Part shown: positions 5,027 to 51,460 of the stretch, piece after piece
Layout of the letters: each line of letters starts with the position of its first letter
How positions within the stretch are numbered: the first letter of the stretch is position 1
Origin: Eledone cirrhosa
Taxonomy: Eukaryota
DNA: 64,000 nt
Assembly (NCBI GenBank): GCA_964016885.1
Contig: OZ024741.1
Location: 328,414,001 to 328,478,000, forward strand
Direction: 5' to 3'
Notes under the pieces: model-generated
Databases searched by the model: none
What the model was told of the DNA's origin: nothing
The model's input: the letters and a program-made list of their open reading frames with translations, nothing else
Position numbers and translations under genes: made by a program

Positions 5027-5118
5027 CCGACGGCAGAGCTCAAGCCGTTTCCACGGCTATTTCTGGACTAAATTAGAATTTTTAGCGTGGTAATAAATAG
5101 CCGAACTTTTCAAGGGGT
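5027..5118 (-). ncRNA. Type I hammerhead with U3-A8 core and long stem II (stem I 3' strand truncated)
   Basis: acccc-TTGAAAA-gtt-cggctattt...aaatagccg-tg-GAAA-cggc ttgagctct gccg-TC-gg then (TA)n; stem II is a perfect 9 bp. Confidence 0.6.
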
Positions 5119-6068
5119 AATTCCTTATATGGGAAGATTGCAATTGTCAAAAGGATTGTCAAGATTTCTTTAAACACATTTAAATCTTTCATGGCGGTGG
5201 GTGGGAGGTGGGAGTGGCTAAACTTGCCTGTAGAACAATGAGGGAGTGTGTTGAGTCGGTCAAGCGTTGAAAATGAATGCTATACAGCAAATTCTAAGGA
5301 GTATATTTGAAATTAGGCTAGGTAGAAAGCAGGCGAAAAATCTGAGAGTGGGACGTTATAAAGTTAAATGGTTAATAAATTGAGAAAATGTGTAACTGCA
5401 TGTAAACACCGATTGCGTAGGGCTTACCTCGCCCTCAAACCCCCTCATTACCCGGGTGAGTAGACAATGGCTGCAACATCCTTCTTTTCCCCACTTGCCG
5501 AACAAGATAGGGGACACCCCAGCATACATAGGTAAATTTACTTCTTTTCTTTTTCCCTTTATCTCTTCTTATCACTTTCTTCACATCCCTCTCCTCTTCC
5601 TTTTTCTTTTTCGTCTTTCGCCTTCCCTGGGGAAGCCCATCGGGCTTCTGTAGCCTCAATACCCCCACCCCACTAAATTCTATATAGCATTGGCCGAAAA
5701 CGCAATACCAGTTAAAAATATATCAGCTGCTTTAAACTCTAGAGATTTTTTATTATTTTTTAATATTTCATTTTTTTTATTATTTTTATTTATTATTTTT
5801 TATTCTCAATGTATTAACCATTTAATTTTATTGCGTCCCACTCTCAGATTTTTCGCCTGCTTTCTACCTAGTCTAATTTCTTACACACTCCTTAGAATTT
5901 GCTGTATAGAATTCATTTTTAACGCTTGACCGATTCAACCGACTCCCTCATTGTTCTACGGGCAAGTTCAGCCACTACCACCATGAAAGACTTAAATGTG
6001 TTTACAAGAAATCTTGACAATCCTTTTGACAATTGCAATCTTCCCATATAAGGAATTACTCCTTGAAA
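5027..6068 (-). mobile_element. PLE 3'-end (pseudo-LTR) remnant with inverted duplication
   Basis: 5027-5270 resembles 56960-57220. ~5390-5450 is the reverse complement of ~58235-58290, just past the PLE ORF end. ~5109-5387 is inverted at ~5803-6068. Confidence 0.7.
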
Positions 6069-6074
6069 TTAAAG

Positions 6075-6585
6075 GCATTTTGAAGACCTTACGCTTATGT
6101 TTTAGAGTAGTGACAATGCTGAAAATAGAAGTACGTGATATTGTCACTACTCTAAAACAATAGCGTAAGGTCTTCAAAATGCTTTTAATTAAGCATACAG
6201 TATTGCAAATTTACAGTATATATACATTTATATATATACCGCTATTTCAGGGCATCAATTCTAATTTTCAATTTTTGCTGGACCGGCAACGGCTCTGTAT
6301 AATCAGTTCCTGATTATTACTGGAATTCTATAAGAATACAACATTCATAATTTCAGCATATAGGAGGAGTGCTGAGCTTTGATAAGTAACAACAAGTACG
6401 AAACAGAACTCTGTCAGCTTATCTCCCCTTGTTTGCTGAAATCGGAAGTAAGTGACATTGTCTCTACTCTAAAACAATAGCGTAAGGTCTTCAAAATGGT
6501 TTTACTTAAACATACAGTGTATTGCAAAATACACTATATATACATTCATATATATATATCGCTATTTCAGAGCACCAATTCTAAT
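6075..6585 (+). mobile_element. Retrozyme-like ~317-bp tandem unit (family B) with short inverted arm
   Basis: ttgtc(a/t)ctactctaaaacaatagcgtaaggtcttc at 6141 and 6458; 6075-6116 is inverted relative to 6141-6182; ends in (TA)n; same family as 17932-18632. Confidence 0.8.
6375..6419 (+). ncRNA. Minimal type I hammerhead, U3-A8 core
   Basis: agct-TTGATAA-gtaa caacaa gtac-GAAA-cagaactctg-TC-agct (one mismatch in stem II). Confidence 0.7.
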
Positions 6586-6724
6586 ATATATATATATATA
6601 TATATATATATATATATATAGTAAATTTGTATTCCAATGTTACTAAGTAGTTGCATTGGATGGAGTCAACCGACGTCAGAGATTGCTCAACGTATAATAA
6701 AGTGTGTTTTAAAATCCGGAGAAA

Positions 6725-6974
6725 ATATGGAGAAGAAGTTTACGAAATGGAAATGCGGGTATATAGAATTTATTAGGTAACAATTGTTTCTATAGTGTAT
6801 GGGTTACCTATACCTCGCTATTTGAATAATATACAAATATTATCATAAACCGAAGGTACACTGTAAGCAAACACACCATGTCTTCAGACCTTTGTATTAG
6901 AATGATATATAACAATTGTTACCTAATAAATTCTATATACCCGCATTTCCATTTCGTAAACTTCTTCTCCATAT
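6725..6974 (-). mobile_element. Fold-back element (64-bp arms) enclosing a hammerhead
   Basis: 6725-6788 is the reverse complement of 6911-6974; the arms end at aacaattgtt; (TA)n lies on the right. Confidence 0.8.
6775..6891 (-). ncRNA. Type I hammerhead, canonical core, long stem II
   Basis: aggt-CTGAAGA-c-atggtgtgt...atacactat-a-GAAA-caattg-TT-acct; palindromic stem III, GUU site. Confidence 0.7.
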
Positions 6975-6990
6975 ATATATATATATATAT

Positions 6991-7199
6991 ATAAAGAAAA
7001 AGAGCTGAAATCGAAAATGCAACTGGAGTCTTATTTGAATAACTGCGAAACCGGTAAAGGAACCAAATAAATATATATATATATATTTTAAATAAGACTC
7101 CAGTTGCATTTTCGATTTCATCTCTTTTTCTTTATACTTTCACTCGTCTAGGACACCTCGGTTATTTTTCAATGTGTAAAAAAAACCTCACTTTCTAAT
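6991..7199 (+). mobile_element. Fold-back copy of ~230-bp HHR element (family D), HHR 5' half missing
   Basis: ctgcGAAAccggTAaagg; ~6991-7046 is inverted relative to ~7090-7135; ends ctcactttctaata(TA)n like the 28327 and 51137 copies. Confidence 0.75.
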
Positions 7200-48489: not shown

Positions 48490-48678
48490 TGGATTGGCAA
48501 TATCGGTAGAGGGTCGGACGCCATGCTTTGACGCATAGAGTTACGGCCCTTGCTATTCTGAGTTCAAATGCCGCCGAGGTTAACTTTGCCTTTCATCCTT
48601 ACGTGGTCGATAAAATAAAGTACCAGTAATACACTGAAATAATTGCTGGCCTTGTGCCAAAAGTAGAAACAATTATTA
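48490..48678 (+). mobile_element. tRNA-derived SINE
   Basis: ttggcaatatcgg, gagttcaaatgcc, tttgcctttcatcc and tail ggccttgtgccaaaagtagaaac. Confidence 0.9.
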
Positions 48679-49041
48679 TATGTCTGATTTTTTTATTTTA
48701 TTTTATTATCATCTCTGTATGGTATTCATAATTGGTTTTTATTTTGTATCTCTATTCCTTTACCCCTTTACATTCATGTATTGCCTTATCTCCTTAATAC
48801 TTACTTCAAACAATGTGCCAGCGGACGTAAGGCAGACAGGTTGACGCGCATGGGTACGTACGACAATTTGACCGAGATGGCGATAATAGCCGCTAAATTA
48901 TAAGAAGCCCCCAGCTGTGATCTGACCGAAAACAGACGAAGTGAATACTGTGAAACATCACTATGACAACATTTGTGGTAGCATATAAGAAGGAATCGGG
49001 ATAATATTCAACCACTCTCAGATGAGAGTCTACATGTTAAA

Positions 49042-49133
49042 ACATATCTGAAGAGCTTCCGATTACTGAGTGAGGTTCGATCATTAATAGGTCTTTCCTC
49101 GAGCTGATCGACAGTGAAACATATGTAATATGT
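49042..49133 (+). ncRNA. Type I hammerhead, canonical core, long stem II
   Basis: acatat-CTGAAGA-gct...agt-GAAA-catatg-TA-atatgt; 6-bp stem I, palindromic stem III. Confidence 0.75.
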
Positions 49134-50092
49134 CATAAATACGTATATGATGCAACACTGATTCTTTGTTCCCTTATATATTAATACTATTGATACTCTG
49201 CTCCCCAAGAGCATCGAATGCTCATTTGGCATACCGCATGTGGCGTAATTAATTTGCACCTTAATACGTATATGTATATATATATATATATATATATATA
49301 TATATATATATATATATATATATATATATATATATGTGTGTGTGCGTGTGTTTGTGTTCGTGCGCGCGCGCTTGTGTGTGTATGTGTGTGTTTTGCTCTT
49401 TCCCCTTTTTTTCCAGTGCCTCCATCACCCTAAAAAATATTGATAGGAGTTCTTTTTTCTCTACCAAAGACATAAATATGTAGTGAATTTAGTAGTTGGG
49501 AATAATTATGAAGTTACCGAAAATAAATGTTCAGAACGCTGAAACCGTAAAAAAAACTAACAAACAGAATGTATCTCACAGAATGTGGGTCTCTGAAACC
49601 ACCAACCAATATAATTGTCTAATTGTGGAACACGTACGAGAAATTCCGTCTTTCTTCATCTCTCCAAATATAGTTAGAAACACGTCTTTAGTCTTTACCA
49701 TTGATACACATCTGACGAATGATTAATTCCAATTATTCTCTATTCCCACCAAATATTATTAGACAAACAGGTCTCGGCTTTATTGCGTCGTCATTACTAA
49801 ACCCAGTTGGATAAAACGTAAAGTCAATATTTTCTTATCAGCATCGAGAGTGAGAGTTTCACAAAAACAGTGAAACAGCTGCTAACATCTACAACAAGAT
49901 TGCTGTAAAATGTGTTTAAGTCTCTTATGAGATAACAAACAAGACAAATTGAAAATTGAATATAAGAAAACTCCAGATGGTGTCATGTAGTAAGATGACA
50001 CATGGAAATAGTAGAATTTGCATTCAACACGAAAAACATCGATGGTAGGCTGGAAAATTCATGGACTGAATGTGAAATATGAGTTTAGTACT

Positions 50093-50420
50093 GCGAAATC
50101 CTGCATATATTAATTTTAACTCTTCTTATTAATAACTGCATTGTTTCGTTTTCGTTCCTATGTTGAAATATAAACCTCATTTTATCATTCCATGAGAATA
50201 TCTTTGTCAATCTATTAACGTTTCAGCCTATGAACCTTTCAGTCTTCCTTCTTATACCAGGGCTCATATGCTACAACTGTGAAATCTTGCATGCGTTTAT
50301 TTCAACTCTTCTTATTACTAACTGCATTATTTCTTTCCCGGTTCTATGTTGAAATATAAACCTCATTTGGTCATTCTTTGAGAGTATCTTGGTTAGCTTA
50401 TGAACTTTTCAGCCTACTCT
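50093..50420. repeat. Diverged ~186-bp tandem duplication
   Basis: aactcttcttatta..taactgcatt..ctatgttgaaatataaacctcattt occurs twice, from ~50093 and ~50279. Confidence 0.75.
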
Positions 50421-51136
50421 CGCATGCCAGACCTGAAAGCCTTAGTGAACATTAAATCTTCAATTGTAGTTTAGAAATGTAAGTTGCCTATGAAAAAACA
50501 AATTAGAATTTTAGATGATTCGATGTACATCAAAACCATGAGTTGGCAGAATAGATAACGTATCCAATTAATAACTTTCCACATCCGTTCTATTTCTGTG
50601 CGTTTTAGGTTAAAGTATCGCTAACATTAACTTTGTCTTTTATCCTTTCGAGGGCCGATAACAGTTTATAAATGAAGTAACACCCGAGGATGGGAGGTAG
50701 ATAGGGGAAGTTTCCACAGCATCGTATCCTGATTTTCACAGTGGAGGTATATAAATATATATATACATATATACAGACACACACACACATATATGTATAT
50801 ATATATATGTGTGTCTGTGTGTGTATCCATACATACACATATATATAAAATATATATATGTGTGTGTGTATGTATATATACACTGCTCGGGGTCTGTCTA
50901 CTGAGTTTTTACTGTCAAGGAACAATTGTACTTCAGTCAATACGATAGAACACACGCTTAAGATGCCACGACATCCCTAACAACACAGTCATGCCTGATA
51001 TATAAATAAATATATATATATATCAGGGAATAATTATAAATAAATATGTATGTATATATATATATATATGTGTGTGTATATATACACACGCGCACACACA
51101 CACACACACACACACACACACATATAAATATATATA

Positions 51137-51460
51137 TTTATAGAAAAAAAGATGAAATCGAAAATGCAACTGGAGTCTTATTTTTTTTTTAAATATATAT
51201 ATTTATTTGGTTCCTATACCGGTTTCGCAGTTCTTCTGCTTTTCAAAAGTAGAGTTGAGATGGAGGGTCTGTGGTTTTTCTCACATTTTGAAAAGCAGAA
51301 GAACTGCGAAACCGGTAATGGAACCAAATAAATATATATATATTTTTTTAAAATAAGACTCCAGTTGCATTTTCGATTTCATCTTTTTTTCTTTATAATT
51401 TCACTCGTGTAGGACACCTCGGTTATTTTTCATTTTGTAAAAAAACACTCACTTTCTAAT
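51137..51460. mobile_element. Fold-back copy of family D with two U3-A8 hammerhead motifs (51214-51249 minus, 51285-51320 plus)
   Basis: TTGAAAA-gcagaagaactgc-GAAA-ccgg-TA on both strands; stem I is imperfect in both; ends ctcactttctaata(TA)n. Confidence 0.8.

Follow-up and report, generated by a model that had tools for sequence, protein, structure and literature searches.

U3-A8 variant hammerhead motifs in four repeat families of Eledone cirrhosa, and a C3·A8 mismatch phase in one of them

Introduction

A 64,000-nt stretch of DNA from Eledone cirrhosa (assembly GCA_964016885.1, contig OZ024741.1, positions 328,414,001 to 328,478,000 of the forward strand; hereafter the window, with positions counted from its first letter) contains eight type I hammerhead motifs in which the C3-G8 pair of the core is replaced by U3-A8. 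The motifs belong to four repeat families, denoted A–D, and U3-A8 is the norm in every one of them. We consider it probable, from comparison of the sequences, that these folds cut themselves slowly, possibly with the assistance of a protein, and that U-A substitutes for C-G at positions 3 and 8. Family A, a Penelope-like element (PLE), also includes subfamilies with a mismatched C3·A8 core, and its tree reads as a path from U3-A8 through C3·A8 and back.

Hammerhead Motifs in the Window

The window is AT-rich, microsatellite-rich animal DNA, and the source assembly comprises 3.0 Gb. Position 3 of the eight U3-A8 motifs lies at 5113(-), 6379(+), 18442(+), 28489(+), 45851(-), 46639(+), 51246(-) and 51288(+). 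A preliminary description of this DNA had listed the same eight sites, by the ends of helix I rather than by the heptamer, and all of them were located. The window was searched with a type I descriptor in which positions 3, 7 and 8 were left open, using 10 local dinucleotide shuffles as a control for chance matches. The search returned 10 matches, five with U3-A8 (46639, 45851, 5113, 6379 and 28489) and five with C3-G8, against shuffle means of 1.0 match of any kind and 0.2 with U3-A8; the motifs at 18442, 51246 and 51288 were not recovered by this descriptor. The hammerhead shape of the eight UUGA(U/A)AA sites is genuine and occurs much more often than expected by chance, and several of the copies are decayed. 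In all four families, the type I core elements U4, G5, A6, N7 and A9, the GAAA, A15.1-U16.1 and H17 are arranged around three helices. The canonical consensus with C3 and G8 does not describe these cores; the published U3-A8 variant does.

The motifs had previously been described as complete scaffolds. The hammerhead shape was borne out, but four copies (5113, 18442, 51246 and 51288) are defective. The family A hammerhead (5027–5118, minus strand; UUGAAAA at 5113–5107) has a long helix II, a 17-nt helix III hairpin and a predicted cut after 5029. It is decayed: G11.1 replaces C11.1, and helix I is only 2 bp because the copy stops 2 nt beyond the cut site. It terminates the 5′-truncated 3′ end of what appears to be a Hydra-type PLE (5027–5456, minus strand), consisting of the end of the open reading frame (ORF), the 3′ untranslated region and the hammerhead, with an inverted partner at 5803–6068. 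Family B is represented by a hammerhead at 6375–6419 on the plus strand (UUGAUAA at 6379, predicted cut after 6415), set in a non-coding unit of ≈320 bp (6135–6585), and by the 18442 copy (18438–18482, plus strand), which has a palindromic helix III and one mismatch in helix II and is part of an insertion (17932–18634) that also holds an inverted copy. The family C hammerhead at 28486–28521 (plus strand; UUGAAAA at 28489) is of minimal size, with a CCGG palindrome as helix III and a predicted cut after 28518. Two more family C copies form a back-to-back insertion: the inverted half (51214–51249, minus strand; position 3 at 51246) has a mismatch in helix I, and the other (51285–51320, plus strand; position 3 at 51288) has no 5′ strand left in helix I, the loss falling at the inversion joint. 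Family D forms a retrozyme-like insertion between TA runs, with one hammerhead in the inverted half (45767–45856, minus strand; position 3 at 45851, predicted cut after 45772) and one at 46634–46723 (plus strand; position 3 at 46639) with an 8-nt palindromic helix III and a predicted cut after 46718; its unit of 591–595 bp occurs in tandem elsewhere.

Another claim was that every core-retaining copy of the three small multi-copy families carries both core changes. Within the window, a strict double change holds for families B, C and D and fails for family A, in which a second copy (56960–57055, minus strand) has the heptamer CUGAGAA at 57050–57044 and thus a C3·A8 mismatch. This otherwise near-intact hammerhead lies 3′ of the remnants of a reverse transcriptase (RT) and GIY-YIG frame, the broken ORF of the same element (58235–59490, minus strand). 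As stated earlier, the four families have no flanking sequence in common: the sole cross match among them is 11 bp long, with an E-value of 0.43.

Canonical C3-G8 motifs are found in the same window at 47191(-), 49048(+), 51815(-), 52097(+), 53145(-), 53620(+) and 54084(+). Five of these copies belong to a 464-bp tandem repeat (51775–54125, both strands) and serve as an internal control, with canonical cores beside the variants. The surrounding region (51459–54496) consists of nested back-to-back insertions of this repeat, and the copy at 53620 has an altered cut site. A fifth U3-A8 hammerhead-shaped motif, absent from the preliminary description, lies at 32–74 on the minus strand (UUGAUAA at 69), with helices I and II of 5 bp each; no second copy was present among the DNA sampled.

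Rfam gave no hammerhead match at gathering score anywhere in the window, canonical copies included, the latter scoring only 18.5 of 52 bits on HH9. Among the best 150 of 293 matches in the whole-window scan there were only microRNA-like hairpins, and narrow scans of the A, B, C and D motifs yielded no hammerhead match to an E-value of 10. The expectation that searches requiring CUGANGA would miss the variants was correct, and applies to Rfam as well; such searches undercount the hammerheads here by about 1/6 of the copies.

The 3-8 Pair in the Four Families and Across the Genome

For family C, a search with positions 3 and 8 left open returned 11,288 exact matches (control 0), and U3-A8 was present in 99 of the first 100 listed. 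The pair was found in 44 of 45 copies of family B and in all 39 of family D, counted among the best BLAST matches to a U3-A8 query. In family D contigs from four public runs with three organism labels, no other letter reached 3% at position 3 or 8. Family A gave 5,060 matches, of which 3,665 had U3-A8, ≈1,300 (≈26%) had C3·A8 and six had C3-G8. A8 was lacking in 43 matches, while 1,352 had A8 without U3, with C3 in 97 of the 100 listed. A C3-G8 subfamily of family A was considered and rejected, as the six copies are scattered over different subfamily backgrounds at the rate of chance changes. Each of the four families has U3-A8 as its norm; as had been proposed, the pair is a family-level state and not the product of decay. 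The count of U3-A8 against mismatched 3-8 combinations came out as anticipated in B, C and D, but not in A, where the C3·A8 copies form subfamilies of their own.

We then sampled the genome as 80 evenly spaced stretches of 10 kb (800 kb) with a stricter filter. Of 60 matches, 47 had C3-G8, eight had U3-A8 and five had other combinations, compared to 3.3 matches per shuffled set. The C3-G8 matches fell into 14 groups (20 of the matches belonging to one tandem family) and the U3-A8 matches into three. Family A has an interrupted helix II and is therefore missed by the stricter filter, so that U3-A8 is somewhat undercounted. U3-A8 is not the norm of the lineage, but a minority beside canonical C3-G8, and the suggestion of a lineage-wide class is not tenable if it is taken to mean a replacement of the canonical core.

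Two other observations were made. In the first random sample (400 kb), a UUGAUCA heptamer without helix III was matched three times by a looser descriptor (L034, L047 and L060) and was excluded by the stricter filter; it may be a chance match within a common repeat. At L349:4763, another family has a single copy of a high-scoring hammerhead with C3·A8 (CUGACAA), which is similar to the canonical window motif at 49048 and possibly represents a chance mutation.

Penelope-Like Elements Carrying the Variant Motifs

In full-length family A elements, the motif is present in both terminal repeats around a frame encoding RT and GIY-YIG domains. At locus L306, hammerheads at 3806 and 6924 flank an open frame of 786 aa, and an inverted copy lies at 1394. 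A PLE protein match was found upstream on the same strand at 15 of 30 family A loci. The protein has the motifs RWR (residue 104), DKT (184), CxCX5C (639), CxxC (737) and CxH (765), as well as YRDD and YIG. Pfam gave no match on the 786-aa frame, and the family A copy in the window gave a weak GIY-YIG match. By these features, family A is an autonomous PLE, apparently of the Hydra type, the clade being assigned by its motifs.

Walking upstream from the family C hammerhead at two loci (L309 and L310) led to an ORF of 845 aa with RT and GIY-YIG domains (Pfam: GIY-YIG 27.5 bits, RVT_1 E-value 2e-5), a DKG motif at residue 225 and a CX4CxxC linker at 715. Family C is likewise an autonomous PLE, with a linker of the Neptune/Nematis type; its motifs fit either clade. 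Both A and C have the single ORF with RT and C-terminal GIY-YIG domain that defines endonuclease-bearing PLEs. Hammerheads in terminal repeats, partial tandems, an inverted 5′-truncated partner and TA targets were all seen (L305, L306 and L309). Copies of all four families are 5′-truncated, often arranged back to back and embedded in TA runs, like Penelope insertions. The A and C proteins have only two patches of ≈30% identity in common, in agreement with the earlier impression that the carriers are unrelated.

Another Hydra-type element in this genome, very abundant and with many open frames of 832 aa, has a hammerhead with a U4C core (CCGAAGA) in which C3-G8 is retained. This hammerhead sits ≈1.4 kb 3′ of the stop codon at L072, L084, L093 and L099. 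The family includes the window ORFs at 61859–63799(-) and 8624–10889(-), and two further CCGA..G cores occurred in the random genome sample.

Non-Coding Tandem Repeats

Families B and D consist of tandemly repeated units, every unit having a single type I hammerhead. The family D period was 591–595 bp in 24 intervals, with a unit of 593 bp (43% G+C) and a longest frame of 85 codons. For family B, the period was 315–321 bp, measured in only three tandem intervals, and the longest frame was 49 codons. A same-strand PLE match was present upstream at just two of 25 B loci and at none of 30 D loci. As non-coding tandem units without a linked ORF, B and D are best described as putative retrozyme-like repeats. 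The possibility that D is a terminal repeat of the neighboring ORF at 43804–45228 was rejected, since D lies between TA runs and forms tandem arrays of its own and none of the 30 D loci has a same-strand PLE match upstream.

Conservation of the Family A Motif

Genomic copies mutate freely once inserted, and we therefore compared subfamily majorities along the source lineage of family A. Among eight such majorities, each resting on 2–32 copies, there were six changes on 54 ribozyme sites, where 43.7 were expected, versus 217 changes on 268 loop and flank sites, a count that includes noise from indels and alignment. No changes were found in the 10 invariant core sites or in helix I, while N7 was A, G or U. 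These counts indicate that the family A motif is under purifying selection. Helix II shows a compensatory pair difference between family A and its sister A2 with U3-A8 retained, and in two B-like copies, helices I, II and III are all altered, again with U3-A8 retained.

The Mismatch Phase of Family A and Its Sister A2

A first tree of family A that included 5′-truncated flanks was noisy, with seven changes. The final tree was built from 72 of 107 copies with positions 3, 7 and 8 masked; 35 copies, including the whole U7 subfamily, were dropped because their truncated flanks were not homologous. The resulting tree is a ladder, with old U3-A8 copies, a long C3·A8 grade, and young U3-A8 copies nested within it. 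Two 3-8 changes are forced by supported branches, and a single U3 clade was rejected by the approximately unbiased test (p-AU 3e-12), in which the core letters served to name the groups, with the first, noisy tree already seen. The median end branches were 0.028 for the old U3 copies (biased low by BLAST selection), 0.025 for C3 and 0.011 for the young U3 copies, and the backbone spent at least 0.24 substitutions per site in the C3 state.

The tree was rooted with A2, whose endonuclease is ≈73% identical to that of A. The joint tree was shorter and contained 102 family A rows and 38 outgroup rows picked by pattern, five of which proved to be family A; it roots family A on U3. On this rooting, the path of family A reads as U3-A8 to C3·A8 to U3-A8, while no other part of the core changed, and the mismatched form appears to have been amplified to ≈1,300 copies before the pair was restored. 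During the C3·A8 phase, there were four changes at ribozyme sites versus 13.1 expected (P 0.006), none of them in the core or helix I. Two public runs that share an organism label also contain C3, which is therefore not an assembly error; two other organism labels had U3 only, from just two contigs each. An amplified C3·A8 subfamily, or a trajectory of this kind, was not encountered in the literature, of which our coverage was incomplete.

A2 has its own 3-8 variation. The first 100 of its 437 matches comprised 87 U3-A8, six U3·G8, two C3-G8, one C3·A8 and four others. Four of the five copies with G7-G8, which have U3·G8 (three) or C3-G8 (two), group together with SH-aLRT support of 88, and would represent a second route across the 3-8 pair.

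Some features of these families concern the ends and folding of copies. Thirty A2 loci (L316–L345), selected with the 3′ half of the hammerhead, all have 5′ truncations that fall at nearly the same point of helix II, no more than a few bases apart and often accompanied by a fold-back inversion; reverse transcription stops or turns at this hotspot. These 30 loci lack the core, and no 3-8 state could be obtained from them. In family A subfamilies S4–S7 (e.g., L244, L207 and L193), the beginning of helix II has changed in such a way that it is predicted to pair alternatively with the loop of helix III, displacing the hammerhead fold, and in the youngest subfamily this pairing is removed again.

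Other Features of the Window

The window contains two more decayed Hydra-like Penelope ORFs, at 13735–15377(-) and 43804–45228(-), and the family D insertion breaks the second of them on its upstream side. A GC-rich region (29983–38322), unrelated to the hammerheads, holds copies of a retrotransposon of the non-LTR (long terminal repeat) type, with RT and a zinc-binding domain at 30959–32848 and 36805–38313, an endonuclease-like frame at 33832–34269 and a zinc-knuckle frame at 35030–35905.

Discussion

In hammerhead cleavage, G12 acts as the base and the 2′-OH of nucleotide 8 as the acid, which is positioned by the 3-8 pair (PMC6257768, PMC3884650). Since the pair merely positions the acid, another Watson–Crick pair can serve. 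Cutting after GUC or GUA would trim the transcript to unit length, with A probably acting as a monomer, and B, C and D as dimers formed through the palindromic helix III; in cofolding, two C copies paired through the palindrome. Selection on cutting speed may be weak, because the RT must also copy through uncut hammerheads to generate partial tandems. The partial tandems at L305 and L306 carry an internal hammerhead, as might arise by copying through an uncut or circular template. Such weak selection would explain both the fixation of U3-A8 in separate lineages and the tolerance of C3·A8 for ≈0.24 substitutions per site. The non-coding B and D units would be copied in trans by Penelope proteins. 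In the Penelope hammerhead for which results have been reported, cutting requires the protein of the element and is abolished by single mutations at position 3 or 8, while hammerhead mutants are unaffected in insertion in vitro (PMC11167929).

Several results weigh against the reading of these motifs as self-cutting RNAs. Neither in A, A2, B, C and D nor in the canonical control did short copies accumulate 5′ ends where cutting is predicted, in samples biased to intact motifs. The hammerhead was the minimum-energy fold in only some of the copies and subfamily majorities, and several of them pair helix II with helix III. Helix I of family C is just 3–4 bp. A deep mutational scan of a type III hammerhead reported activity to be restored by the G3-C8 swap alone, the remaining double mutants of this region being low (PMC9901934). 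The small number of copies behind each majority and the noise in the flank counts weaken the estimate of selection, and the conservation during the C3·A8 phase is explained equally well by a non-catalytic role.

Such a role might consist in binding of the Penelope protein or priming near the start of reverse transcription, with variant cores that cut little or never. The conservation of the scaffold while positions 3 and 8 were mismatched, the lack of a cutting footprint at the ends of copies, the U4C core of another Hydra-type family, and the normal in vitro insertion of hammerhead mutants (PMC11167929) all fit this explanation. However, the single-stranded core letters (UGA, A9, GAAA, U16.1 and H17) did not change where ≈8 changes were expected at the flank rate, N7 being free to vary, and the lineage regained a Watson–Crick 3-8 pair, which is carried by the youngest subfamilies with the longest open frames. 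We regard such a role as unlikely, but as a serious competitor to the preferred reading. Alternatively, the variant cores might be dead relics that drifted to fixation in the source elements and were amplified passively: both are AT-ward transitions, and C-to-U and G-to-A changes are the commonest in an AT-rich genome; the mismatched state reached ≈1,300 copies; and many genomic copies are decayed. Ribozyme sites were, however, about seven times more conserved than the flanks along the source lineage, helices changed in a compensatory manner with U3-A8 retained, and mismatched cores otherwise occur at shuffle level in random DNA (5 vs. 3.3), leaving this explanation with hardly any credibility. 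Scarcely better is the prospect that U3-A8 arose once and spread lineage-wide, by descent or by exchange of 3′ modules between elements, which we hold to be very improbable. At least four families share U3-A8 in one genome, probably six or more if A2 and the motif at 69 are included, and exchange of 3′ modules between Penelope elements is possible, but the flanks are dissimilar, the helix architectures differ, the motifs of the A and C proteins place them in different clades, canonical cores exceed the variant by 47 to 8, and schistosome elements have the same core.

The C3·A8 copies could themselves be active, through a protonated A·C wobble, help from a protein, or a shifted C3-G7 register with the spare A as a bulge after A9. 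G7 accompanies C3 in 93 of the 97 listed copies and both arise on one branch, an extra nucleotide after A9 is reported as typical of Penelope hammerheads (PMC4209133), and the ribozyme sites were conserved in the mismatch phase. On the other hand, G7 persists after the return to U3, and the link between C3 and G7 may therefore be one of descent only; single changes at 3 or 8 abolished activity in the hammerheads tested in the published work (PMC9901934, PMC11167929); and our literature search found no active core without N7. Activity of the C3·A8 copies is thus doubtful. Equally tentative is the fuller proposal of a compensatory walk from U3-A8 through C3·A8 back to U3-A8, and in the sister family through U3·G8 to C3-G8, with the mismatched ribozyme still cutting by means of the element protein or the C3-G7 register. 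If this were the case, the mismatched ribozyme would represent a previously undescribed hammerhead active site.

The U3-A8 pair itself is known, and what is added here is the family A series. Natural source elements with U3-A8, C3·A8, U3·G8 and C3-G8 on a near-identical scaffold make the role of the hammerhead in Penelope elements testable; in the only reconstituted Penelope system, cutting was reported to be weak in vitro and dispensable for insertion (PMC11167929). Should the C3·A8 form prove inactive, elements would be able to spread over a long stretch without cutting and yet conserve the fold; should it prove active, nature would provide an exception to the 3-8 pair rule. In either case, the series would show a compensatory pair in a ribozyme core changing through mismatched steps, and the history of family A constitutes a natural test of whether Penelope elements need cutting at all.

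The novelty implied by the preliminary description is not supported: U3-A8 cores are in print both for natural hammerheads and for Penelope elements. Perreault et al. (2011, PMC3088659) described covariation of C3-G8 to U3-A8 in several natural hammerheads and cited in vitro activity of such swaps; as given there, the examples are rare and isolated, repeat matches with core changes were mostly rejected, and the account contains no subfamily history. The closest parallel is provided by the Cercyon PLEs of Schistosoma mansoni, with ≈1,300 matches to U3-A8 minimal hammerheads (Cervera and de la Peña 2014, PMC4209133). Like A–D, these are of type I, with UUGAUAA and UUGAAAA in the published alignment, and they are reported to lie in Penelope terminal repeats, mostly as single or inverted copies, as found here. 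Unlike Cercyon, the variant in the present genome occurs in apparent Hydra-type and Neptune/Nematis-type elements as well as in non-coding tandem repeats, exceeds 11,000 copies in one family, and has a helix III that ranges from a 4-nt palindrome to a stable hairpin. The large C3·A8 subfamily has no counterpart mentioned for Cercyon in the available text of that report.

The family A protein has the features reported for the Hydra clade (RWR, DKT, CxCX5C, CxxC, CxH, plus a C-terminal domain of the GIY-YIG type; Craig et al. 2021, PMC8557442), and shares with that clade TA targets and a hammerhead. The hammerheads of Hydra elements are canonical as presented there, whereas those found here have U3-A8, C3·A8 and, in another Hydra-type family, U4C. 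Families B and D resemble the metazoan non-LTR retrozymes, in which each non-coding tandem unit is described as having a single type I hammerhead (Cervera and de la Peña 2020, PMC7229834; Li et al., bioRxiv 10.64898/2026.07.22.740005), but differ from them in the U3-A8 core and in the 593-bp unit of D, compared to the usual 150–450 bp cited in these sources. Lastly, the Poseidon element PAc of Anolis carries, like A–D, a Penelope hammerhead, whose 3-8 pair was tested (PMC11167929), and offers a model in which cutting is slow, aided by a protein and not needed for insertion in vitro. Unlike A–D, PAc has a canonical C3-G8 core, and it belongs to another clade.

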